DNA from: a virus
Taxonomy: Duplodnaviria > Caudoviricetes
Virus record (IMG/VR): IMGVR_UViG_3300025118_000014
Coordinates: 1 to 59,283 of that record
Length of the DNA stretch: 59,283 nt
Strand: one strand, 5' to 3'
Shown: positions 9,486-59,030 of the stretch, piece by piece
Layout: the number at the start of each line of letters is the position of its first letter
How positions within the stretch are numbered: position 1 is the first letter of the stretch
Notes under the pieces: generated by a model
What the model was told of the DNA's origin: nothing
Database searches by the model: none
What the model saw: the letters and a program-made list of their open reading frames with translations, nothing else
Made by a program: the position numbers and the translations under genes

Positions 9486-9544
9486 GGTGTTCTCCTTTGT
9501 TGTATCTATTGTGATCGTTGGATCGCCGCGTGTCCAGAACTTTC

Positions 9545-9739
9545 TTAGGAAAGATCCTGCGATGTGATCTTCATGAAGAACGCTTCAGCCTCAGCGAGAG
9601 TTTCGAACCGCTCAACGCACTGCCCAGCAAACGCTGTGGACTGGACAATGAAGTAGTTCTCCGGGTCATAGTAAGAAATACGCTGCGCCTTGATGATGGT
9701 CTTACGGTCTGCTGATTTTCGGATAATTGTCGGTGTCAT
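9545..9739 (-). CDS. Small early protein, paralog of 2492..2665
   Basis: AAGGAG RBS, own promoter, clear paralogy. Confidence 0.8.
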   Translation of the reverse strand: MTPTIIRKSADRKTIIKAQRISYYDPENYFIVQSTAFAGQCVERFETLAEAEAFFMKITSQDLS

Positions 9740-9799
9740 AGTGTTTCTCCTTGGTATGTATATATTATGATCGCCGGATCGTCTGGTGTCCAGAACTTT

Positions 9800-10401: not shown

Positions 10402-10650
10402 TTATTGGGTTACCTTCAGGTCCACGAAGTACGGGCTGTAATCTCCGCCGCGACCTGGACGCATGATCCAGAATTCGTGCGGCCCGTGTTCCAGCCAACA
10501 GAGGCCACAGGGCAGCTTGTCTTCCGAGCCGTCGTGTCCACAGACCATGATCATCCCGTCTTCCTTAACCACTTCGATTACGAACCACCCCGTCAGGACC
10601 ATGTGTCTAACCATGTTTGTCTCAATGTTGAATAAGTCTACGTTGTCCAT
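10402..10650 (-). CDS. Hypothetical early protein
   Basis: Start moved to ATG 10650 (AAAGGAG RBS, own promoter). Confidence 0.75.
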   Translation of the reverse strand: MDNVDLFNIETNMVRHMVLTGWFVIEVVKEDGMIMVCGHDGSEDKLPCGLCWLEHGPHEFWIMRPGRGGDYSPYFVDLKVTQ

Positions 10651-10693
10651 AGTGTTCTCCTTTGTTACCAGCAAGGTAGTCGTGGGATCCCCC

Positions 10694-10954
10694 CTAGTCA
10701 AGAACTTCTTTCCACAACTCGACAGATTCAAGAGTCAGGGCTGTGATCTTGGCTGTGTACGTGCAGTACAACTCTGACATCAAGTCGTATTGTCCATTCA
10801 GCCTAGCGTGCTTCTCGTTGAACTCAGGGTCTTCGACGTCCAGGGCCATGATAGCTTCGAACACGTCGTTGTTAAGGTCGCTTACGATTGTGCGTGCCTC
10901 GTTGAGTGCTTCCCGCTTTCCCATATTCTCGTTGATTTTTTCGTAGTCTAGCAT
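10694..10954 (-). CDS. Hypothetical acidic helical early protein
   Basis: Start moved to ATG 10954 (AAAGGAG RBS, own promoter). Confidence 0.75.
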   Translation of the reverse strand: MLDYEKINENMGKREALNEARTIVSDLNNDVFEAIMALDVEDPEFNEKHARLNGQYDLMSELYCTYTAKITALTLESVELWKEVLD

Positions 10955-11017
10955 GTCGTTCTCCTTTGTTGTATACATTGTGATCGTCGGATCGCGCGGT
11001 GTCCAGAAGTTTCTGAA

Positions 11018-27294: not shown

Positions 27295-27556
27295 AGTAAC
27301 TATTCCCCTCGTTTACATGCGTCCTACTGGTTAGGTAGTACCGCTTTTCTACTTCAATGATGACCGGGTCTGTCCCGATGTTTCTCAATACCTTATAGGC
27401 GTCTACGACCGCGTTGTCTACAACTTTATTCAAGTCTGGCAAAATTACTTGAGTGCCAGCGGGCAGGTAAAAGGGTCCGAGTACAGGGTGAACATAGTTC
27501 AAGTCTCGCACTAGCGTTCCGCGCCTCTTCTTGGATTTCCTTTTACCCCAGCCCAT
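27257..27556 (-). CDS. Hypothetical protein
   Basis: TAATG coupling with the sigma gene. Confidence 0.6.
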   Translation of the reverse strand: MGWGKRKSKKRRGTLVRDLNYVHPVLGPFYLPAGTQVILPDLNKVVDNAVVDAYKVLRNIGTDPVIIEVEKRYYLTSRTHVNEGNSYYGGNTSKFRRNR

Positions 27557-28044
27557 TACTTGTTCCCTTTCTCAAGTCGCTTGATGTGGCGCTTGATGCG
27601 TTGCTGCTTTGATTGTCCGCTTACGCCGAGTGCCTCGCGTGTCTCGCTGGATGAAAGTCCCAGGGCTTGGGCCATGAGGGCCTCCTGCACGATTAACGGT
27701 GCCCGTTCCATCAGAAGGCTCATCTCGGCCTTGGACTCAACAACCTCTTGACCCATGTACATCTCGTCAAGGATGTCCCAGTTCTCTACGTATTGAGTGT
27801 TCGATAGTGGTTTGATTGCAGCGCGCCTAGTGTACCGGTCCCGGATCTTCATGGTGCGATACCATGCCCAGGTGCTGAATGAGCCCTTGCTTGGGTCATA
27901 CTTCGCCCAGTGTGTCAGAACGTCCGCGATCACGTCGCCAGTGTAGTCTTCTAACTGGTTCTGTGGACCACGCCAATTCTTCGCACATAGCTTCTGCAGT
28001 GTGTTGTATTGGTCTATTGTCATCTCATGTTGTTTTGCCGCCAT
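27556..28044 (-). CDS. Phage-encoded sigma70-family RNA polymerase sigma factor
   Basis: Region 2 motif KYDPSKGSFSTWA; C-terminal region-4-like GLS..E....LGVS HTH; AAAGGAG RBS. Confidence 0.8.
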   Translation of the reverse strand: MAAKQHEMTIDQYNTLQKLCAKNWRGPQNQLEDYTGDVIADVLTHWAKYDPSKGSFSTWAWYRTMKIRDRYTRRAAIKPLSNTQYVENWDILDEMYMGQEVVESKAEMSLLMERAPLIVQEALMAQALGLSSSETREALGVSGQSKQQRIKRHIKRLEKGNK

Positions 28045-41024: not shown

Positions 41025-44000
41025 TTAGCTTCTTCCCCAGGGATTGTTCCCAGGGGCGCGTATTCCGGCCCTCTTACCAGCCGTTTTTCTAACCATCCTC
41101 GACACCCCGGTGGCCCGCCCATCGGCGTTGGCTCCAACGACTGCGGAGTCTATCACCGAACCGTCCACAACAGACTGTACAATTACGGTTCCCATTCTTG
41201 AACTGTTACTGTAGTTCGAGGAGGGGGAGGTGGGTCCTCCACTTGAAGCCTGTCCTGGCCTATTCTCATGCGCAGGAACAACGCGCTCTCCCTTGTGCAG
41301 CGTTACGCCCTTCATGTTCCGGGGTACGTACGAAATTCCCGAATAGTAGTTTCCGTCCTTTCCCTTCTTCTTTCCGCCCTTGGGGTGCTCTGCCTTGAGT
41401 GCCCTGAGTGCAGCATCCCTTTCTTCCTTGGTGATTTTTCCGGCCCTGTACGCGTCTTTGATCTCTCTTTTCTTCTCCCTGTATTCCTTGCCTCTGCCGC
41501 CGAATATACCGGCCAGAGCATCAGCAATAGCCTTTGCAATGGCCTTCACGAATTCCCAGATAATCTTTGGAAGCTCCTTGATGATCGCCCAGACCAATCG
41601 AGGAAGCTCCTTGATGACCGCACCAACGATCTGCGGGATTCCTCTGGCCAGGGCCATCACAATGGCTGGGAAGTTCTTGATGAACGCATCCACGATTACA
41701 GGAATAGCCTCAACCAGCTTGTTGATTAGTATAGGCAACTGGTGAGCGATCTGTTCCATAATGTATGGGAGCGCCTGGATAACCGCGTCAATGTAGCCCA
41801 TGATCTGGTCGACCTTGTCCGTCACAACGCTCTTGGCAGCCTCTTCAGCAGACCCACCCTCTTCCATCAACGTCTGCGTTTCACCAGCCATAGCGAAGAT
41901 ACTTCCAACGCTTGCGAGGTTCATTATGTCCGTTGCGATCTTTCCGATCTCGTCTATGACCTCAGTGCCGAAGTTGACAGCTTGACCAAACGTCTGCATG
42001 AGTTCGCCAGACATCTTGCCAACTGATTTCAGCGGACCCATCACAAGAGACGAGATTCCCTTGGCGAGTCCAGCGATAGCTTTTCCGGCTAGGTCAACGG
42101 CACCCTTCAGGATGGTTGTTCCAAGGCCGAACTCTTTGACGTCTGCTGCGAACTTGGCTAACTGAGGGAACTGGCTGGCCATGGCGTTCCCAATGGACTT
42201 ACCCAAATTCAGGCCGCCGCCCTCCTTGAGTTCTTTGCGATTCAGACCACGCAGTTCCTTCTTAGCGGACTTGACTCCAGCCTTGTCTCCACTCTCCTTG
42301 GCCATTTTCAGCTTAAGCTCAAGTTGCTCCCTCAACTCCTTGGTTGTTTTTTTCTCGCTTTCCACTACTTCCAGCGCAGCAGCCCTGCGCCTCTCCAGTA
42401 GCTTTAGGATGCCCTCCAGAAGCTCTGTCTCGCTTCCATACCGCTCGACCAGCGCTGCTGTCTCATCGTCGAATCTTGCGTTTATGATAGCCTTGCGCTT
42501 TTCCTTGCCCTCTTCGAGAAGGTCGTTCTCCATGTCTCGATGCGATCTGGCAGCGCTCAAGCGCAATTCCCTCAACTTCTCAATGTCGGCAGCAGCCTTT
42601 TTAGCGGCAACTTCATCCCTTACGTCACGGTCGTCGCTAATTTTCTTGTTTGCTAACCCCCATGCCTCCAGAAGAGCCATTTTCTCCTCTGCGGTTTCAA
42701 GCTCCTTCATTCTTGCGGCGAATGTAAGGTTGCTTATCTTGGTCTCAAGCTCGAACCTTTCCTGGCTGTTCTTAGTGGAATCTTTCCTGGCCTGAAGAAT
42801 CTCAAGCTCCAACTCCTTCACCTTGCTGACCCTCTCGACAGCGACACCACCACCGCCACCACCCGAATCACCGCCAGCGCCCTCTGAGTCCTTAACAGAG
42901 TCCTCTGCGTCTCTCGCGGCCTCAGCCTTCAACTTTTCAAATTCCGAATGCGCACTAGCGCCAGACTGGTCTCTTCCTGCTATTCCCGCGCCCTGCAACT
43001 GAGCACTGTTCGCCTTGACGCCATCAAGCCCCACGGCATCCCCGGCAGCGCCGATGACGTTGTTGATCTCGTTAAGTGCTGCAGCGGAATCTCCTCCACC
43101 GAACACGAACTTAAACAAGGAGGTTCCGGCGATCTTCTTCCCGACTTTGGATACCTCTTGCGCGACTTCCTTGATCTTCCGTATAGTTCCGCCGAGCCAC
43201 TTGTTGATCAACTTCGAGAAGAACGCCGCTATGAGTGACATAACTCCGCCAACCTTGCCGCTGCCCCCGAAACGCTTGGCTATAAGTCCGGACAAATACG
43301 TGATAATCTTACCTATAGATTGTAGTGCCTTGCTCGCCAGTGCCAAGTTCCAATGTATGAACTTGGTGAACAGGTTTGCCACTACAGCAGACAATATCTT
43401 TATTAGACCGTTGATGAAGATTAAACTCCGCTGTATCGGGCCAGTTACTCTACTCCACGTTGTCCACACGTCTCCAATGAGCGCTATCGCCCCAGCAATA
43501 GCCAGACCGATCCCGATCAGGGCGTCAGCCCATATGTCTGCGGCGTCCTTAGCGTCAACCGCAGGGCCCGTCCATGCCGCAAACGCGGTCCTGAATGCTG
43601 CCTCAAGTACGCCGAACCGATCCATAAAGCTCTCGTAGAACTCGTCCAGGAATGTCCTTACAAAGTTTATGGCTCCACCAAGGCCAGAATTAGAGTCTTT
43701 GCCGACGATAAGCTCAAACAGACGAATCATTAGAGCGTTGAACTTTGAACCAATCTTGAGCATTGAGCCCGTTACAGAGTTCATCATGTCGCTCTGTATT
43801 TTGGCAGCCTTGCCTTGTGAGTCAGCGAACTCTTCAGCCCTCGTTTTCAATTCCGGGAATTTCTTTGCAAGACTGACTAGGTTGCCCTCGTACTGTGCCA
43901 GACCAAGTGCGGACGGAGCGAACCGTGCCCCGAATACATCAATGTAGTCTCCTGTTTCCGCGCCAGCCTTCTTCATTCTAAGGACTGCCTCTTCCATGTT

Positions 44001-44795
44001 CTCAACGCCCTTTCCGGGTGTTATGTCTTCAAAGGTCAGGCCAAGATCTTTAAGTGCGGCTTCTGCCTTGGGCGTTTCCTTAGCTAGGGCACTCAGGCCC
44101 ATTCTCATGCCTGTTCCCGCGATTGATCCCTCAATACCAATGTCGGCAAGTTTTGATAACGTGGTAAATACCTGCTCAACAGACTGGCCAAACTGGTTAG
44201 ATATGGGGCCAGCGTACACCATCGCTGCAGATAACGATTCAAAGTTCAACATGGATTTCGTCAGCGCTACTGCCATCAGGTCAGCCACTTCAGACGCCTG
44301 TGTGGCCTCCATATTGAACTGCCGAAGCATCTTGGACACGAACTCCGCAGACTGGCCCAGTCCAGCCCCTCCGACTGTAGCAACAGCAAGAACCGCTTCC
44401 GTTGCAGCAGCGATCTCGTGAGCTTTGAATCCAGCCTTTGACATGGCCTCAAAGGCATCCGTAACCTGTGACGCTGTGTATTCCGTGTCGGACGCTAGGT
44501 CCAGCGCCAAGGAAGACAGCATCTTCATGTCTTCGCCGGTTCCGCCGAGGAGGGCCTTTACTCTGACCATCTTGTGCTCGAATTCGGATCCGGCCTTTGC
44601 TATGGCCCCGAAGCCGACGGCTATGGCGCCGAGGCCCAGGCTCGCAGTCCCTGCCGCCGCGCCAAACCCCGCGATCACTCGCTTCATGTTGGCCATTTTC
44701 TTGGTGGCCGTATCAGCCTTCCTGTCGAACTGAGCCGTGTCCATCATCATCCGGACAACTAAGCCACTCGCTTTTCCAGCTTTACCAAATGCCAT
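41025..44795 (-). CDS. Tail tape measure protein (TP901 family)
   Basis: FE..M..VKA...T.YTA.QV..A...M.KAG...GI.GS.AGT TP901 core; long helical body; H.GE.V.P C-terminus. Confidence 0.92.
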   Translation of the reverse strand: MAFGKAGKASGLVVRMMMDTAQFDRKADTATKKMANMKRVIAGFGAAAGTASLGLGAIAVGFGAIAKAGSEFEHKMVRVKALLGGTGEDMKMLSSLALDLASDTEYTASQVTDAFEAMSKAGFKAHEIAAATEAVLAVATVGGAGLGQSAEFVSKMLRQFNMEATQASEVADLMAVALTKSMLNFESLSAAMVYAGPISNQFGQSVEQVFTTLSKLADIGIEGSIAGTGMRMGLSALAKETPKAEAALKDLGLTFEDITPGKGVENMEEAVLRMKKAGAETGDYIDVFGARFAPSALGLAQYEGNLVSLAKKFPELKTRAEEFADSQGKAAKIQSDMMNSVTGSMLKIGSKFNALMIRLFELIVGKDSNSGLGGAINFVRTFLDEFYESFMDRFGVLEAAFRTAFAAWTGPAVDAKDAADIWADALIGIGLAIAGAIALIGDVWTTWSRVTGPIQRSLIFINGLIKILSAVVANLFTKFIHWNLALASKALQSIGKIITYLSGLIAKRFGGSGKVGGVMSLIAAFFSKLINKWLGGTIRKIKEVAQEVSKVGKKIAGTSLFKFVFGGGDSAAALNEINNVIGAAGDAVGLDGVKANSAQLQGAGIAGRDQSGASAHSEFEKLKAEAARDAEDSVKDSEGAGGDSGGGGGGVAVERVSKVKELELEILQARKDSTKNSQERFELETKISNLTFAARMKELETAEEKMALLEAWGLANKKISDDRDVRDEVAAKKAAADIEKLRELRLSAARSHRDMENDLLEEGKEKRKAIINARFDDETAALVERYGSETELLEGILKLLERRRAAALEVVESEKKTTKELREQLELKLKMAKESGDKAGVKSAKKELRGLNRKELKEGGGLNLGKSIGNAMASQFPQLAKFAADVKEFGLGTTILKGAVDLAGKAIAGLAKGISSLVMGPLKSVGKMSGELMQTFGQAVNFGTEVIDEIGKIATDIMNLASVGSIFAMAGETQTLMEEGGSAEEAAKSVVTDKVDQIMGYIDAVIQALPYIMEQIAHQLPILINKLVEAIPVIVDAFIKNFPAIVMALARGIPQIVGAVIKELPRLVWAIIKELPKIIWEFVKAIAKAIADALAGIFGGRGKEYREKKREIKDAYRAGKITKEERDAALRALKAEHPKGGKKKGKDGNYYSGISYVPRNMKGVTLHKGERVVPAHENRPGQASSGGPTSPSSNYSNSSRMGTVIVQSVVDGSVIDSAVVGANADGRATGVSRMVRKTAGKRAGIRAPGNNPWGRS

Positions 44796-48961: not shown

Positions 48962-50767
48962 CTATTCGAAGGAAGGCACCTCAAAAGAAATCCCTGGCAG
49001 AGGCAGGCCCTTCTCCCGCAGTCCCTTTGGAGTGCCGAGCAGGGGTCGTTCTGGAGCCAGCTTTGTCAGGACTTCGTGAAGCGCCTTTGTTGATTCGTGT
49101 GAACCGTGACCCTGCGAGATCCGGTCAAGGACATTCCCATAATAACGCTTAGCTTCTCTAAGGTGATATGATCCAAGTTCTCGGTGTGGCAGGTACGATC
49201 CCCCGGAGCACTTGACCCCGTTTTGGTAGCACTCGACGGCCTCATCAATGGAACCATCGTTCTCACACTGCAAGCCAAGCGCAACCCACGCCTGCACGCA
49301 GTCCTTGTCATGCTTCAACTCTTCCAGTAGCAGGGCCGTGTACTTGGCCAGCTTGGCGTCAATCTGTTCATCGTCCATGGCTTGGCCTGTATTGACCATG
49401 ATGAAAGGAGCATACTGGCACTTAGGGTGGATGCCCGCTCCACGGATGTTGTTCAAGGAATCTCCAAAACCCTCGTGGATCCTGCCATTCATCCGCATGG
49501 TTCCGTTTCCGTCCAGCCTAGTCATGCGCAGGGTCTCGGACTCGCTTGATTGACCGTCCCGCTGAATGTTCTCGAACTTGACCATCCATCCCCAACAGTT
49601 AGTAATGTCTGCCATTCTGCGAATGTCACGAGCCATTTGCTGCCAGTCTTCACATACCTCGTCAGGGTCGAAGAATAACGCCCAAGCGCATCCCTTGGAC
49701 TCAAGGTAATCGATTCCCGCGTTACGGGCTTCAGCCAAGTGCTTGTCTAGCGGCTTGTAGATCAACTCGGCCTTGTATAACTCAACAACCTTAAGCATCT
49801 CGTCGCTGATCTTATCTTTATCGCCCGTCCATACGACGGCTATATGATCAACGATACTGTAAAGCTCGTCAAAGAGCCTCACATAGTCCTCTGGGCTTTC
49901 TTTCTCGTATGCGAGAACGTGGAGCCCAATTCCGTTCTTAGACACCACCTTGCCCATCTGTAGGCCCTCGTCGTCCAATATATACGTGTGATTCACTCCC
50001 GGCTGCTCCTGTCTTGCGCGCATAAAGGCTCTGACCCGGTCGTCCTGGTTTACAAGGCCGTAAGAGCGTGTACGAACAGCGCATTCTTTAGCAAGCGCTT
50101 CGCCCTCGATTTCCGCGTTGCGGTACATCTTGATGCTTCCCTGCTGACCGCGATACTTGTTGTTGTCTCCCCACGGAGCGTCAACTCGATATAGGCTCGT
50201 GCTATCCCAGTGTGTGTACCAAGACATTCCGTAGCCCATTACGTTGGGGTTAGGGTGGGTCATCAGTCGCTCGATGTGTTCTCGCCCGATTCGGTCTTCG
50301 AGAACGTCGTCCTGATCCAGATACATGATCCAGTCAGGCTCGGTCTCTTTCGCCACTTCCATGGCGCCAGCCATCTCTAGCTCAGGGGAGAAGTCGCCCT
50401 GGTACAATTTGGCCTCTGCACGCTTAGCGATGTTGCCCTTGGTCTTCCCTGCGATAGAAGCAACCCACCCGGCAGTAGCCTTTCGGATCGCTTCAATCTC
50501 ACCCTTAGCGCAAACTTGGAACCAAGTCAGATCGTCCCTGGACCAGTTGGATTCATTCTCCTTCCAGTCGCTGGCCTCTGATGCCGACAGAGGATTGTCC
50601 ACCAAGAGGATCGCGATAGCGTCTGCTACCGTACATGATTTCTGGATGCTAGACTTTAGCGTGAAGATGTCGTGCGCAGACATCAGTCTGGCCTTGTACA
50701 GAACTGTGAGCGTCTGCTCTGCCTGCGTAGACTCCTGGTTCTTAGAATAAAGTGATAGCTTAGACAT
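48962..50767 (-). CDS. Tandem GT2-like glycosyltransferase with C-terminal TPRs
   Basis: DWIMYLDQDD and WALFFDPDE DxD motifs, AEARNAG, GRIHE; TPR AWVALG...EAVECYQ. Confidence 0.8.
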   Translation of the reverse strand: MSKLSLYSKNQESTQAEQTLTVLYKARLMSAHDIFTLKSSIQKSCTVADAIAILLVDNPLSASEASDWKENESNWSRDDLTWFQVCAKGEIEAIRKATAGWVASIAGKTKGNIAKRAEAKLYQGDFSPELEMAGAMEVAKETEPDWIMYLDQDDVLEDRIGREHIERLMTHPNPNVMGYGMSWYTHWDSTSLYRVDAPWGDNNKYRGQQGSIKMYRNAEIEGEALAKECAVRTRSYGLVNQDDRVRAFMRARQEQPGVNHTYILDDEGLQMGKVVSKNGIGLHVLAYEKESPEDYVRLFDELYSIVDHIAVVWTGDKDKISDEMLKVVELYKAELIYKPLDKHLAEARNAGIDYLESKGCAWALFFDPDEVCEDWQQMARDIRRMADITNCWGWMVKFENIQRDGQSSESETLRMTRLDGNGTMRMNGRIHEGFGDSLNNIRGAGIHPKCQYAPFIMVNTGQAMDDEQIDAKLAKYTALLLEELKHDKDCVQAWVALGLQCENDGSIDEAVECYQNGVKCSGGSYLPHRELGSYHLREAKRYYGNVLDRISQGHGSHESTKALHEVLTKLAPERPLLGTPKGLREKGLPLPGISFEVPSFE

Positions 50768-52070: not shown

Positions 52071-52880
52071 TTAGGAGAAAATCATTAGTTCCCGAGTCAG
52101 GATCGCAGAACCCCTCGCATAGTCAGTGTCGGGCACATAGCCGGTAAGATTGGCTAGGTCGCGGTTCAACTTGCCGTTCTCTGGCCCCTCGACCACGACG
52201 AGTTCGAATGCGTCCAGGTTGTGCCTATTGCTCGAAAGCTGCACGATGGCCTTACACAGATCGTCGATGTACAAGGGATGGCTGTCAGGCTCTCCCAGGG
52301 AAACTCCCCCGTTACGGTGCAACTGGTTATGGTACGCGCGTGATCCTCTTCCTTGCCCAGGGCCGTATACTTCTGCTGGAGACACTACGATGATGTTTCC
52401 AAAGAAGTCCTGCTCCTGCACGTTTGCTAGGTACTCTGCCGCAAAGTTGTGTCCCACCGGATCTCTTCGGTTGTGAAGGTGTATCAGCTTGGACTGCTTG
52501 CCCAGGAAAACACTCTGCTCTCGCCTTGCCTGTACGATGTTGTCGAGTCCCTCAGACAGGCTCTTGAGCACGTCCACACGGTCCTCCGACTCAAGGTCGC
52601 CAGCGCAGTTGATGATAACGTCAGGGTTGAATGACAGCACTCTCGTCCGCACATTCTCGAAGTCCTGGATGTCGTTACCTTCTCCCGCAAGAACCCCAAC
52701 CTTTCCATGCTCTGGCGGTCCGAGTCTAAACGGGACAGAGTTCATCTGAAGCCTGTTTAGGTTGTAGGTCGCCTGTGCGGACCCACGGTCACACACTAGC
52801 ACCTCCATTCCCACGCTATACATCTCTTCTGTTAGACTGGAACCGATGAATCCCATGCCACCAAAAATTAAAACTTTCAT
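52071..52880 (-). CDS. NAD-dependent epimerase/dehydratase-like SDR, apparently degenerate
   Basis: KVLIFGGMGFIGS Rossmann motif, PDVIINCAG, VYGPG, LYIDDL; no YxxxK. Confidence 0.8.
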   Translation of the reverse strand: MKVLIFGGMGFIGSSLTEEMYSVGMEVLVCDRGSAQATYNLNRLQMNSVPFRLGPPEHGKVGVLAGEGNDIQDFENVRTRVLSFNPDVIINCAGDLESEDRVDVLKSLSEGLDNIVQARREQSVFLGKQSKLIHLHNRRDPVGHNFAAEYLANVQEQDFFGNIIVVSPAEVYGPGQGRGSRAYHNQLHRNGGVSLGEPDSHPLYIDDLCKAIVQLSSNRHNLDAFELVVVEGPENGKLNRDLANLTGYVPDTDYARGSAILTRELMIFS

Positions 52881-52881
52881 G

Positions 52882-53238
52882 TTATCCTCCATAAAGTTCA
52901 ATCATTATAGACACTATAGTCTCCCTGTCAAGTGGAATTCCTGTTGCACTGTGCGCAACAATGGCTTCAAGTAGCGCGTCCCACACTATCCCGAGCGGAA
53001 TACCGCTCTCCTGGGCACACATGATCGTGTTGAGCATGTTCTCGGACAGCGCTAAAGATAACTCCGCGACGTCTCCTGATTCAAGCGCATTTGAGCACTC
53101 TTCTGCGGACATCTTCATCTTGGCGGAGCATCCCCTTACTGTCGGGTAGTCCGGTATTGAAGGTCTGTCCGAAACGGAGTGCGTTCCAGCGATTACTGAA
53201 AGGCACTCTGCATCTTCCCACGGTGTCCACTTCTTCAC
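52882..53238 (-). CDS. MazG/PRA-PH-like all-alpha NTP pyrophosphatase, divergent
   Basis: EE....LESGD..E...AL........GIPL..VW pattern. Confidence 0.5.
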   Translation of the reverse strand: MKKWTPWEDAECLSVIAGTHSVSDRPSIPDYPTVRGCSAKMKMSAEECSNALESGDVAELSLALSENMLNTIMCAQESGIPLGIVWDALLEAIVAHSATGIPLDRETIVSIMIELYGG

Positions 53239-53254
53239 GGTTCCTCCTTGAGAG

Positions 53255-53324
53255 ACACAAAAGGGGCCGAAGCCCCTTGAGTATCCTGTACGCGGCTTAA
53301 TGTGCGCGCTGGATCACCTCTCAC
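53255..53324 (-). ncRNA. Putative late small RNA complementary to the 16S rRNA 3' end
   Basis: Lies between the GGGTATAAC promoter (53329-53337) and terminator AAGGGGC-TTCG-GCCCCTTTT (53259-53278); contains GAGGTGATCCAGC. Confidence 0.5.
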
Positions 53325-53336
53325 TGTAGTTATACC

Positions 53337-53747
53337 CTAAGAGATACGTTTAATGTACGACTTAATGTGCTTGATGACTGTTTTTCTTGGCTTGCCGTAC
53401 TTGTTGTCTCCAGCATTCTCTGCGTCAAGCATCTTGTTGGCGTATTCCAGGTCTGGCTCGTGCTCTCGCAGCCAGTTGTCTACCAAGCTGGCAGGAATGT
53501 CTAGCCCGTAGTAATCTCCTGAATCTTCGTTCTTGATCTCTTCAGGGTACACTGGACCGCTGTCCATTACCGCTGGCTCTTCTGGGGCCTCTTTCCAACG
53601 TCGGATCATAAGCGTTCGCTTTCCTCCGCTAGTCTTTGGCTCTGCGTATGCGTAACCATCGTCACCCTTGCGGACTCGGATGACCTCACCCGGCGAGTGG
53701 ATCTTCTTTGGGCACGGGCGCCCCTGTAGCTTCTTTCTCATTAACAT
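53337..53747 (-). CDS. Hypothetical head-module protein with a C-terminal E..G..RK.VI helical domain
   Basis: TAATG coupling to the adaptor gene; motif shared with 54323..54844. Confidence 0.7.
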   Translation of the reverse strand: MLMRKKLQGRPCPKKIHSPGEVIRVRKGDDGYAYAEPKTSGGKRTLMIRRWKEAPEEPAVMDSGPVYPEEIKNEDSGDYYGLDIPASLVDNWLREHEPDLEYANKMLDAENAGDNKYGKPRKTVIKHIKSYIKRIS

Positions 53748-54313
53748 TAGTATGTTCTCCCAGGAATAACGGCCATGTATCGAGACACGATACGGTACAC
53801 GATGGGTGGCCATCCTCCAAAATCGCCCTGATCACCACGCTCGAACTTCTTATAAGAGTACGCTCCGATTGTCTCGGACTGCTTATCGTCAGTCTTCTTC
53901 ATGATGTCCACGGCCAGTAATGTGATCGCTTGGTCGAGGTCTGCTGGAATAGCTGGGAACCCTGAAAGGTACTCAACTGTTACAGTCTGTCGCCCATAAG
54001 CGAATTCTGCAGCCCTGCCTGTAAGGCACAACCATCGGTCGGCCCTGGTGTAGTGGTCGTCCGATGCTAGGGCTGAATCTCCGTTTGTCACGGATGTGAT
54101 AGAGTTAGCCCAACGTCGAAGCCTGAGCGTATCTTGCCCTGACTCCTCAACGTCGTACTTCTCTGTATACGTGGCTTCGGATAGACTGTCTAAATCAAGT
54201 GCTTCAGCAATCTCTGCTTCTGCGGACAATGAGGCTGCCAAGATGATCCCGTCTTGCGACGTATCGCTCGCATTCAGCCCCAAGTAACTTTTAATGTCGT
54301 CTACCCTTGCCAT
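53747..54313 (-). CDS. Head-tail adaptor (gp15/gp6-like)
   Basis: V.DIKSYLG...D...V.V.Y..GF..IP.DL..A...SETIG.YSY pattern. Confidence 0.85.
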   Translation of the reverse strand: MARVDDIKSYLGLNASDTSQDGIILAASLSAEAEIAEALDLDSLSEATYTEKYDVEESGQDTLRLRRWANSITSVTNGDSALASDDHYTRADRWLCLTGRAAEFAYGRQTVTVEYLSGFPAIPADLDQAITLLAVDIMKKTDDKQSETIGAYSYKKFERGDQGDFGGWPPIVYRIVSRYMAVIPGRTY

Positions 54314-54844: not shown

Positions 54845-54900
54845 ATCAACTCCGTCATTAGTTCTGTCTGGTTATACCCTCGTTAGCACACTAATGAATC

Positions 54901-54933
54901 AAAAAAGAACGGGCAGCCACCGTGACTACCCGC
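54901..54933 (-). terminator. Intrinsic terminator
   Basis: CGGGTAGTCAC-G-GTGGCTGCCCG stem followed by TTCTTTTTT. Confidence 0.65.
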
Positions 54934-55021
54934 TCAAGAGACAACAAAATGAGAATTGCAAGACTTGACACTTGCAACTGTATTATACCCCATAAGTGAG
55001 CCAACGCGATACGGCCAGATC

Positions 55022-55078: not shown

Positions 55079-56044
55079 TTATGCGCTGATGCCGAGAAGG
55101 ATGCAAAGACCCAAGTCGTTAGCCAGAACCAAGGCCAAGTCGCAGTACATTTCAACTTCGCTGAATTGGCTGGTGCTTTGAGCAACAGGCATAACAGTTA
55201 AAGGAGAAAGTTCTGCGATGTAGCAGTGACGCTTGTTCACAACGCAGAGAGCGGTAGTAGTACCACCGGTCATAGCGGAGATAGCACCGGCACCGTCCAT
55301 GTCGATGACGTCAGTCATGCCTGTGGAGGTTACGAGGGGGATACCATCGTATGAACGAACGCGGAAACCAGCTTTGATTTCGACCATGTCGTTGAAAGCC
55401 TGCTGAGCTTGAAGAGCAGCGTTGACCTTGCGGATACCAGCGAAGGAACCGAAGATAACGATGTCGTTGCGGTTGCCAGAGCCCTTGACTTTGTCAATGG
55501 CTTCGTCCAACTTGGAAAGAACCAAGTCGTCGCCAGCAGCAGCAGTTGAGTTAGCAACAGTCTGACCAGAAGCAACTTGTTTGAACAATCCGTCGATGCT
55601 GTTAGGGTCAACAGTAGAGTTACCTAAGAAGATAGCGTTCTCAAGAGCGTTTGCGTAGTCTTCAGCTTTGCCCTGCAATTCGATTGCAAGTGCGTCACCG
55701 TAAGAAGCAGCGCGAGCAGCAGCTTTACGAGTAACCTTGACTTTCGTCAAAAGGGTCTTGAAAGGGAAAGACTCTTGAGCGTAAGTTCCGCTTTCTTCTG
55801 TGGCTGAATCAGTGTCAGCAACCCATGCGCCACCGGAAGCACCAGCAGAACGCTTGTTGATGTAAACTGCATCGCCGCTTCCAGCTTTGCGATCCAGAAC
55901 GGCTTGTGCGCCCATTTCGCGAAGTGTAAGTTGCTCAACAACCTTGTTAATGTTCTTTTGAAGAAGCACGCTTCCGACGCTTCCGACGCTAAGTGCTCTT
56001 TCAACCATTTCTGACCGCTCAGGGTCTGTAGTTACGAATTCCAT
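55079..56044 (-). CDS. Major capsid protein (HK97 fold)
   Basis: Position after the protease/scaffold; A.WV.D...E, E.AIF.G...DG, Y.GIP motifs; strongly biased codons; own terminator. Confidence 0.9.
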   Translation of the reverse strand: MEFVTTDPERSEMVERALSVGSVGSVLLQKNINKVVEQLTLREMGAQAVLDRKAGSGDAVYINKRSAGASGGAWVADTDSATEESGTYAQESFPFKTLLTKVKVTRKAAARAASYGDALAIELQGKAEDYANALENAIFLGNSTVDPNSIDGLFKQVASGQTVANSTAAAGDDLVLSKLDEAIDKVKGSGNRNDIVIFGSFAGIRKVNAALQAQQAFNDMVEIKAGFRVRSYDGIPLVTSTGMTDVIDMDGAGAISAMTGGTTTALCVVNKRHCYIAELSPLTVMPVAQSTSQFSEVEMYCDLALVLANDLGLCILLGISA

Positions 56045-57572: not shown

Positions 57573-59030
57573 TTAATTCGCTTCTGGTTGGCTATCGCTT
57601 TCTTCTTCCCCGTCGACTTCTGAGTCTGCGTACGCCTGTATGGGCGTTTCGCCCCTGGCTACATCCTCAAGACGAAGAATCATATTCCCTTCCCCAACAG
57701 TGAAAGTGTCACCGTCTTCGATTGGAAGCATCCCCAGAGCTTCGCGAGCCTCGTTGCGAGACATCATGCCCGCTCCAACTGCTCTGCCCAGCATGTCGAT
57801 TCTAGCTTCCTGGTCCTTCTGTGTGAGCTTGGCTTCTCTGTCGAACTTAAACTCAACATGGTCAGCGTGCTCATCTCCGATGTACTCTGCAACCAGGGCC
57901 GGAATAATGCGCTTGTTCAACATGCCCTCAATAAGCTCCAGTATTGGAGTAATCAGGTGTGATGAAGAAACGTCAAGTTGTGCCTGCGCTGTTGAGCGGT
58001 TGACGTCGGACACGGCACCCATCTCTACGGGCATAACGCCAAAGGCGCGCCAGATGGTTCGTGTGATTCGTTCGATTACTTCGCTCAACTCAAGTTCCTT
58101 GGCGGAAGTCTGCATTGAGATCCATTCAGCGTTACCTGCCTGAGGGCTTGGGAAGTGAAGCATTCGTAGCTTCTGGTCGTTTCCGGCCTCGCTCCTGAAG
58201 TCCTGCATGGCATCTTGTGCCGCTCTTCCAGAAACGCCGCTAAGGACCAGCAGTCCCGGAGGAACTTCGTTGGCGTCAGCGGTCTTCATGGCTCGCTCAC
58301 CGTACCGCAGAACGGCGACAATCTCGTTCAAGATAGTCTCGATGATGGGCATACCTTCGCTGTAGCTAGTGTTTGGAAAGAGGTTCATGTAAACTAATTC
58401 GTCCCGCTTGAACTCAATGGCTCCAGCAAGGCCAGCATGCTGTACGTACTTCTCAACCTGTCCGTATCTGTCGGTAACAACGCGGAAGTCGTCTCCCCTA
58501 CGTGCGCGCAGTTCTTGGAGACGCTTCTTTCGGTCCTTGACGGGCTCGATTGCGGCAGCATCGTAAACCAGGAGGTCAACGATGATCATGAAGATGAATT
58601 GCTGGAATGTTCTTCCGTCGCGGTCAGGATTCTTAAGGAAGCGCTGAATCTGGCGGCTCAGCTTGACCATCTTTTCGTAGTGTGCTTGGTCTCCGGTGTC
58701 GACCATGTCCGATACATTTACTGACCAGTCCCAGGTTGATACGCGACGAGCGATGGAGTCAACGCATGCTCTGACTTCAGGAACCTTAAAGTAGCAAGAC
58801 CAAAGCTGCTCTGTGGTAAGGCTTCGGTTAGGGGCGTTAGTCTCAAGATTTCCGACTCCCGACATTGAATTCAGGGATGAGTTAAGAAGCGTGCTGTGCG
58901 CAGGATGTACTGCCTGGGCCTTTCGCTCAGCCACTGGTGCGTGCGTGTCTGCAGCCAACCATCCGCCTAACTTGGCAGGAGGTGCAGTTCTCTTCGCTAC
59001 TGGCATCGGGCCTCTTTTGAAAAATTTCAT
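57573..59030 (-). CDS. Portal protein (HK97 family)
   Basis: V.ACVD.IA, L..P, G..PI, I..AFGV.P, G.MS.NEAR..LG..PI..GD. Confidence 0.92.
   Translation of the reverse strand: MKFFKRGPMPVAKRTAPPAKLGGWLAADTHAPVAERKAQAVHPAHSTLLNSSLNSMSGVGNLETNAPNRSLTTEQLWSCYFKVPEVRACVDSIARRVSTWDWSVNVSDMVDTGDQAHYEKMVKLSRQIQRFLKNPDRDGRTFQQFIFMIIVDLLVYDAAAIEPVKDRKKRLQELRARRGDDFRVVTDRYGQVEKYVQHAGLAGAIEFKRDELVYMNLFPNTSYSEGMPIIETILNEIVAVLRYGERAMKTADANEVPPGLLVLSGVSGRAAQDAMQDFRSEAGNDQKLRMLHFPSPQAGNAEWISMQTSAKELELSEVIERITRTIWRAFGVMPVEMGAVSDVNRSTAQAQLDVSSSHLITPILELIEGMLNKRIIPALVAEYIGDEHADHVEFKFDREAKLTQKDQEARIDMLGRAVGAGMMSRNEAREALGMLPIEDGDTFTVGEGNMILRLEDVARGETPIQAYADSEVDGEEESDSQPEAN

Follow-up and report, generated by a model that had tools for sequence, protein, structure and literature searches.

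In the late operons of lambdoid phages, the promoter-proximal terminator of the pR′-tR′ unit yields a short ‘6S’ RNA unless Q antiterminates. Another structured phage RNA has been described for the lytic phage phiKZ, in which an intergenic RNA of ~100 nt with two stems, located between PHIKZ298 and PHIKZ297, was detected by Grad-seq and seen on Northern blots, according to the accessible sections of the respective study (PMC8545117). Furthermore, STAB-SD or 5′ SD-like stabilisers are represented by cry3A of Bacillus thuringiensis, the early RNA of phage SP82 and the ermC and ompA leaders. As described in the available excerpts of two publications (PMC7509114, PMC12970973), a bound 30S subunit protects the RNA in these cases.

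Here, we analysed a viral contig of 59,283 bases (completeness estimate 82%), hereafter referred to as the window, in which an intergenic stretch contains a perfect 13-base complement of the 16S rRNA 3′ end. An initial annotation had regarded this stretch as a late small RNA that acts on the ribosome. We favour another reading, to which we assign a probability of about 60%: a promoter, a hairpin and a leaky terminator would form a conserved unit of transcriptional punctuation that produces a leader or a small RNA, and the 16S match would be a by-product of it.

This predicted unit resembles the lambdoid pR′-tR′ arrangement in its succession of promoter, short structured leader, intrinsic terminator and structural genes, with the short RNA as the probable default product. 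Unlike in the lambdoid phages, the unit is embedded in the structural module of a phage in which most other genes are served by promoters of their own. A Q-type antiterminator was not found among the PHROG matches (50 of 55 ORFs and one 158-aa frame), in a gene set in which many ORFs are without any family. Like the phiKZ RNA, the predicted product is an intergenic two-stem small RNA of a phage, and the phiKZ RNA is likewise of unassigned function in the sections available (PMC8545117). The two RNAs have no sequence relation, and the phiKZ RNA was observed on blots, whereas the RNA described here is predicted. With the STAB-SD elements, the locus shares a strong complement of the 16S 3′ end near its inferred 5′ end, with no start codon at the distance needed for initiation. 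It differs from them in that the SD-like core is lost in relatives, that the site is separated from the gene by a terminator and that most of the SD-like sequence is paired in a hairpin. An ordinary Shine-Dalgarno (SD) site has the anti-SD complementarity in common with the locus, where it is predicted to be stronger than at the phage's own sites, but here neither a start codon at 4-14 nt nor a conserved ORF follows.

Gene neighbourhood and related contigs

The minus strand carries nearly all genes of the window, and PHROG and Pfam scans of the ORFs revealed a siphovirus-like gene layout. The sequencing runs containing the contig are labelled marine, and no RNA run was listed among them. The phage is an uncultured marine siphovirus, and the region under study lies within its structural module, with the following features:

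57573-59030: portal (PHROG/Pfam)
55079-56044: major head protein (PHROG/Pfam)
53747-54313: head-tail adaptor (PHROG/Pfam)
53337-53747, minus strand: upstream gene of 136 aa, without PHROG or Pfam family
53339-53337, minus strand: stop codon TAG of the 136-aa gene, sharing the first G of the GGGTATAAC motif
53337-53329, minus strand: GGGTATAAC, putative −10-type phage promoter motif (recurrence in the window and conservation)
53239-53336: intergenic stretch under study, between the 136-aa and 118-aa ORFs
53320-53308, minus strand: perfect 13-base complement of the 16S 3′ end, RNA sense GAGGUGAUCCAGC
53279-53320, minus strand: predicted irregular hairpin of 42 nt (minimum-free-energy fold and conserved pairs)
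53320-53318 with 53281-53279, minus strand: helix P1
53314-53311 with 53286-53283, minus strand: helix P2
53309-53304 with 53296 and 53294-53290, minus strand: helix P3
53278-53261 (stem-loop) and 53251-53278 (overall), minus strand: predicted intrinsic terminator with UUCG loop (terminator scan and relatives)
53236-53249, minus strand: AAGGAGG, 4 nt and the GTG of the 118-aa ORF
52882-53238, minus strand: 118-aa ORF with GTG start at 53238
52071-52901, minus strand: epimerase-like ORF
41025-44795, farther along: tape-measure protein

The mechanical ORF list contains a 158-aa ORF that overlaps the adaptor gene by 67 bases (53747-53813). For the upstream gene, a length of 136 aa (53747-53337) with a one-base stop/start overlap is more likely than 158 aa, because the homologue in the diverged contig L002 (see below) starts at the matching internal ATG. 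The structural module also holds sugar-modifying genes, namely the above-mentioned ORF similar to NAD-dependent epimerases/dehydratases and a 601-aa ORF with a glycosyltransferase family 2 domain (48962-50767, minus strand). These genes may be involved in virion glycosylation or host-surface modification. Neither tRNA nor tmRNA genes were found in the window.

A protein search in 5.8 billion sequences revealed six homologues of the 136-aa protein with 80-88% identity. A blastn search of GenBank phages with 1.1 kb around the site gave no match, and neither did tblastn with the 136-aa protein, while tblastn with the capsid protein returned remote matches only (≤38% identity, Bacillus and Paenibacillus phages). 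Judged by these searches, the phage is without a close cultured relative. Scans for relatives with two single proteins and two alignments (A1 in viral and metagenome collections) yielded a short identical contig, a diverged contig (L002/L004/L007) and a fragment limited to the capsid (L008). When viral contigs were searched for the RNA element by DNA patterns, nothing beyond the same two contigs was found. Among the contigs from these scans, L002 is the only diverged one that covers the site, and the proteins encoded upstream and downstream share ~80% and 59% amino acid identity, respectively, with those of the window. Two further versions, X2 and X3, stem from DNA contigs of other sequencing runs, of which four were aligned. 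The stretch is identical to the window in X2, which belongs to the contigs of a second study. X3 consists of a single 151-nt contig that aligns gap-free to 53246-53396 and differs at 16 positions; 15 of these differences are listed, and the sixteenth is unplaced. An assembly or primer artefact was ruled out, as the contigs of the second study (X2) repeat the stretch without change and those of a third one (X3) contain it with substitutions.

The layout downstream of the terminator differs between the lineages. In L002, the terminator is followed by a second promoter motif (GGGGTATAAT), GGAGG and ATG. The next gene therefore has its own promoter in this contig, and the short unit stands alone. 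X3 shows the promoter-less layout of the window, at least to 53246.

Promoter motif, hairpin and terminator

The window contains the GGGTATAAC motif 15 times without a mismatch; 14 of these copies lie on the minus strand, which is the gene strand. If one mismatch is allowed, 31 matches are found compared to 6.5 expected, and none of 100 shuffles reached this number. The recurrence of the motif is far above chance. A GGAG-type SD sequence and a start codon follow within ~45 nt after 13 of the 15 exact copies, another copy has its start 58 bases away, and the copy at 53337 is the only one in which hairpins and a terminator come first. An SD sequence and a start codon were also found after three of five further motif copies in the L002 contig. 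No common −35 element was seen among the copies in the window, although a few of them carry TTGACA 17 bases upstream. We infer promoter activity at 53337 from the recurring motif. The initial annotation had placed this motif and, behind it, a UUCG-loop terminator on the minus strand, and both positions were borne out. Its description of the RNA as late did not find support: GGGTATAAC also precedes replication-type genes, and late expression is therefore not established.

A 162-aa ORF (27556-28044, minus strand) was found to contain a Sigma-70 region 2 domain (Pfam, 27.9 bits compared to a cut-off of 24) and is annotated as ‘RNA polymerase sigma factor’ in PHROG. A TTGACA-17-TATAAT promoter sequence near 28356-28326 is situated upstream of a small ORF and ~280 bases upstream of the sigma-like ORF. 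It may be speculated that the sigma-like protein reads the GGGTATAAC promoters, which are devoid of a −35 element.

The terminator stem abuts the 5′ hairpin and consists of seven pairs, five of which are G-C, with a 4-nt loop. It is followed by TTTTGTGT, and the U-tract is short and broken (UUUUGUGU), with four U and then GUGU. The L002 stem has an additional G-C pair and a GCAA loop, and no change is listed for X3. Hence, a GC-rich stem-loop with a U-run, as is typical of intrinsic terminators, is present and its stem is kept across the relatives. Together, the promoter motif and the terminator enclose a stretch without an ORF, as expected for a small-RNA gene with a putative promoter. The initial annotation had proposed a transcript of ~70-75 nt; a small transcript framed by these signals was supported in silico, but a length of 66-70 nt fits better.

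Between the two signals, the helices P1-P3 constitute the minimum-free-energy fold (−12.6 kcal/mol for the hairpin alone, z −1.85). The L002 hairpin folds likewise on its own (z −1.67). With these z-scores, the 5′ hairpin alone is predicted to be modestly stable. In the alignment of the window with L002, each of the 13 pairs is a standard one in either sequence; one change is compensatory (C-G to U-A) and three are one-sided. This test consists of two rows, and its shuffle control was uninformative (250 of 500 shuffles). RNAalifold predicted the same helices for the two sequences. Within alignment columns 5-46, we counted 13 differences. The 16 unpaired columns account for eight of them and the 26 paired columns for five, and no pair was broken. 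The eight listed intergenic changes of X3 show a similar picture, as five affect unpaired bases, two lead to G-U pairs and one immediately follows the motif, again without a broken pair; overall, the structure comparison comprises two full sequences and one substitution list (X3) and contains a single compensatory pair. A search for targets of the P3 loop in the phage revealed no 9-base complement, and complements of 7-8 bases on the minus strand do not coincide with gene starts. Rfam gave no match for the whole window at gathering score and two chance-level rows for 53150-53450 at E-values up to 10.

A direct repeat (GCACATTAAG..GTACA, minus strand) connects ~53355-53371, the last codons of the 136-aa gene, with 53290-53306 in the P3 hairpin. 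Six of 1000 shuffles scored as well in the window, compared to 110 of 1000 in L002, in which the repeat was not seen. It may be the trace of a small duplication, or a product of chance.

A second promoter-hairpin-terminator unit without an ORF was observed 1.6 kb upstream of the first one (54895-54990, minus strand), between the terminator of the capsid gene (55051-55030) and the promoter of the next gene (54879). It consists of the following elements:

54990-54982, minus strand: putative promoter GGGTATAAT
54979-54954, minus strand: predicted hairpin of nine pairs
54935-54907, minus strand: predicted strong terminator

The fold of this second unit has a z-score of −4.95, and the unit is absent from L002. 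Its sequence similarity to the first unit is not significant, as 47 of 2000 shuffles scored as well. We consider it a cleaner small-RNA candidate than the unit at 53320-53251. In another part of the window, four copies of a repeat of ~55-60 bases (..GTTCTGGACAC..GATCC..CGATCACAAT..ACAAAGGAGAA..) were detected at 9486-9799 and 10499-11017 on the minus strand. Each copy just precedes a short ORF below the ORF cut-off of 60 aa, and the repeats look like an early promoter family with a shared leader.

The strongest competitor of the punctuation reading is that the promoter motif at 53337 is inactive and that the hairpin and the terminator constitute a compound 3′ end of the head-gene mRNA, which would serve termination and 3′ protection without a separate small RNA. 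This would fit the position of the element directly behind a stop codon, the observation that elsewhere in the window terminators just precede the promoter of the next gene, and the same usual order of terminator and promoter downstream in L002. However, all nine motif bases are unchanged in X3, although six of the seven bases directly upstream (53340-53346) and the adjoining downstream base differ, and the motif is kept as GGGTATAAA in L002. Moreover, the window offers the 118-aa and epimerase-like genes no promoter besides this one. We therefore consider a pure 3′ end unlikely.

Complementarity to the 16S rRNA 3′ end

The 13-mer, which reads GAGGTGATCCAGC on the minus strand, begins eight bases after GGGTATAAC and would be separated from the predicted transcript 5′ end by 0-5 nt. 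The 5′ text given by the initial annotation, GAGAGGTGATCCAGCGCGCACATT, is indeed found on the minus strand from 53322. To the extent that the 13-mer was said to equal the conserved 16S terminus, our scan agrees. The 13-mer extended by one C was found in at least 120 stretches of bacterial and archaeal genome contigs, and of four of the matches listed that were given to Rfam, three (L015, L047 and L084) place it three bases from the 3′ end of the SSU rRNA, while the fourth (L022) contains no rRNA. Among the matches listed, 79 of 118 contexts show helix-45-like text upstream (...GGTGCG or ...CCTGCG), which bears out the claim that the match continues through TGCG after a one-base bulge. The remaining 39 contexts are unrelated places, indicating that such strings also arise by chance in much DNA.

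In the window, the plus-strand 13-mer (53308-53320) is unique, and the next-best exact sub-matches comprise 10 and 9 bases and are located in genes. The expectation for an exact 13-mer is ~0.002 per window of this size (2 × 59283 / 4^13). Such a match is thus rare in one window, and hundreds are expected over a scan of very many windows. With up to two mismatches, the window contains three matches compared to 1.7 expected, and 24 of 100 shuffles reached three, so the 13-mer is not enriched. The site offers 10 pairs with the part of the 16S tail outside helix 45, as an SD sequence would, but no start codon downstream opens a conserved frame. More precisely, there is no ATG, GTG or TTG 4-14 nt past the GAGG core, and the next gene has its own AAGGAGG at 53249-53243, both as originally noted.

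The match is complete in the window (13/13), is reduced to 12/13 in X3, where GAGG is changed to GAGA and the SD core is broken, and falls to 8/13 in L002. By its own refutation test, which asked whether relatives keep the 13-mer, the initial annotation's view that 16S pairing gives the RNA its meaning therefore fails. What is supported in silico is the framing of a small RNA by promoter and terminator, with motif, hairpin and terminator kept in the two diverged relatives available. At the level of sequence, our comparison shows that the promoter motif, the hairpin pairs and the terminator are conserved and that the 16S match is not. The fold suggests how the match came about. GAG belongs to P1, GUG to an internal loop and AUCC to P2, A is a bulge and GC opens P3, so that nine of the 13 matching bases (GAG, AUCC and GC) are stem bases. 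The internal-loop GUG is replaced by AUG in X3 and by UUCG in L002. The three lineages (window, X3 and L002) agree in eight of the 13 bases. Of the five variable positions, two belong to the internal loop and one is the bulge; the other two are in stems, where pairing is kept. Accordingly, the 16S match appears to be completed by bases that are free to vary.

To estimate binding to the 30S subunit, a 68-nt RNA was cofolded with the last 45 nt of the 16S rRNA of the marine alphaproteobacterial locus L015. This predicted a 10-pair duplex with helix 45 intact and a net energy of −14.1 kcal/mol after opening of P1 and P2. The corresponding cofold for L002 gave −3.8 kcal/mol net. For a duplex with the free 13-nt 16S tail, the values were −15.7 kcal/mol for the window and −6.1 kcal/mol for L002, the latter being background. 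Seventeen real gene starts of the phage scored from −5.0 to −11.5 kcal/mol against the 17-base tail and are thus weaker than the 13-mer site. Among 22-mers sampled in the window (n = 19,754), 19% reached −7 and ~1% reached −12 kcal/mol, and three other places scored −15.8 to −16.3 kcal/mol, two of them in genes and one at a true ribosome binding site. According to this model, 30S binding would be thermodynamically possible in the window lineage. With helix 45 respected, the 13-mer site is strong, but it is neither exceptional nor unique in the window, and the predicted binding is not conserved in the element. Pairing of the last three 13-mer bases and of the TGCG extension would require helix 45 to open. 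This is unlikely in the mature 30S subunit. The proposed extension of the pairing into helix 45 is thus not upheld, as the helix would have to melt and the cofold pairs only 10 of the 13 bases.

These results bear on three further explanations. The site could be a cis-acting 30S landing site without a start codon, comparable to a STAB-SD stabiliser or a standby site, on the read-through mRNA, where a bound 30S subunit would shield the mRNA from 5′-end-dependent nucleases or pre-load the 118-aa gene 70 nt downstream. An SD-like 10-mer that would sit within 0-5 nt of the RNA's predicted 5′ end and is not followed by a start codon, the predicted net binding of −14.1 kcal/mol despite the hairpin and a downstream gene that lost, or never had, its own promoter in the window lineage are all consistent with such a role, and start-less SD sequences stabilise mRNAs according to the available excerpts of PMC7509114 and PMC12970973. 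Yet X3 shares the promoter-less layout and has GAGA instead of GAGG, the L002 version pairs at background level and a terminator separates the site from the 118-aa gene. We rate a landing site of this kind as rather improbable, slightly below the pure 3′ end. An equally low standing is given to the related idea that the 5′ end of the short RNA drifted or was selected in the window lineage from 8/13 over 12/13 to a perfect 16S complement and now captures 30S subunits, either in cis (STAB-SD-like) or in trans as a decoy. If this were true, the locus would be a recently born ribosome-binding RNA beside non-binding relatives.

The explanation put forward by the initial annotation, an abundant short RNA that titrates or remodels 30S subunits in trans via the anti-SD sequence and helix 45, could draw on the perfect 13-mer with TGCG after a one-base bulge and on the favourable predicted binding. 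It is contradicted by the lack of conservation of the 16S match, by the cofold with 10 of 13 bases paired and helix 45 closed and by the pairing of nine of the 13 bases within the RNA itself. A full-text literature search revealed, in the passages it returned, no paper describing a phage RNA as an anti-SD decoy. Altogether, a trans-acting decoy is very improbable. Least probable of all is a real ribosome binding site for a short or non-canonical ORF, a 29-codon GTG frame (53324-53235) or an ATT start (53301). Both frames are open in the window; the ATT is in frame with the 118-aa gene, and the 29-codon frame overlaps the next start in a terminal GTGA. In L002, however, the GTG frame is closed after four codons. 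In X3, it has six non-synonymous changes compared to one synonymous change, and the substitution at 53300 removes the ATT. In addition, the SD-like sequence comes after the GTG, the ATT follows the GAGG core by 15 nt, and L002 puts a promoter and an SD sequence directly before the conserved MKKW start. Both the GTG frame and the ATT extension were rejected on the L002 and X3 sequences, as was a remnant ribosome binding site of a deleted gene, since L002 is also without an ORF at this position.

A candidate punctuation unit in the structural module

Returning to transcriptional punctuation, which we prefer, the promoter motif overlapping the upstream stop codon would start an RNA at about 53325-53320, as judged by the usual distance to a −10 element. 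This RNA would fold from nearly its first bases into the 42-nt P1-P2-P3 hairpin. Most transcripts would stop at the GC-rich tetraloop terminator, leading to a compact RNA with two hairpins and a length of about 66-70 nt. In the window and X3 lineages, the remaining transcripts would extend past the terminator and serve as mRNA for the 118-aa and epimerase-like genes. This read-through is proposed because no separate promoter was found between the terminator and the start of the 118-aa ORF in the window lineage, where these genes are without another one. In this way, the unit could set how much transcription passes from the head genes to the next genes, and provide both RNAs with nuclease-resistant ends. 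Like the promoter activity, the RNA ends, the partial termination and the regulatory role are inferred. We regard the unit as a candidate addition to an already known kind of phage small RNA or leader.

The locus also illustrates that a perfect 13-base 16S complement can arise where a hairpin stem happens to resemble a Shine-Dalgarno sequence. Consequently, conservation checks are needed before such sequences are called ribosome-binding RNAs. The three natural variants with 13, 12 and 8 of 13 matching bases would provide a ready series for 30S binding tests. If the short RNA is real, it would add a small structured RNA or leader-terminator unit to the uncultured marine phages without cultured relatives. 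Together with the second nearby unit and the sigma-like gene, it would give a sketch of how transcription may be divided among the structural genes of this phage.
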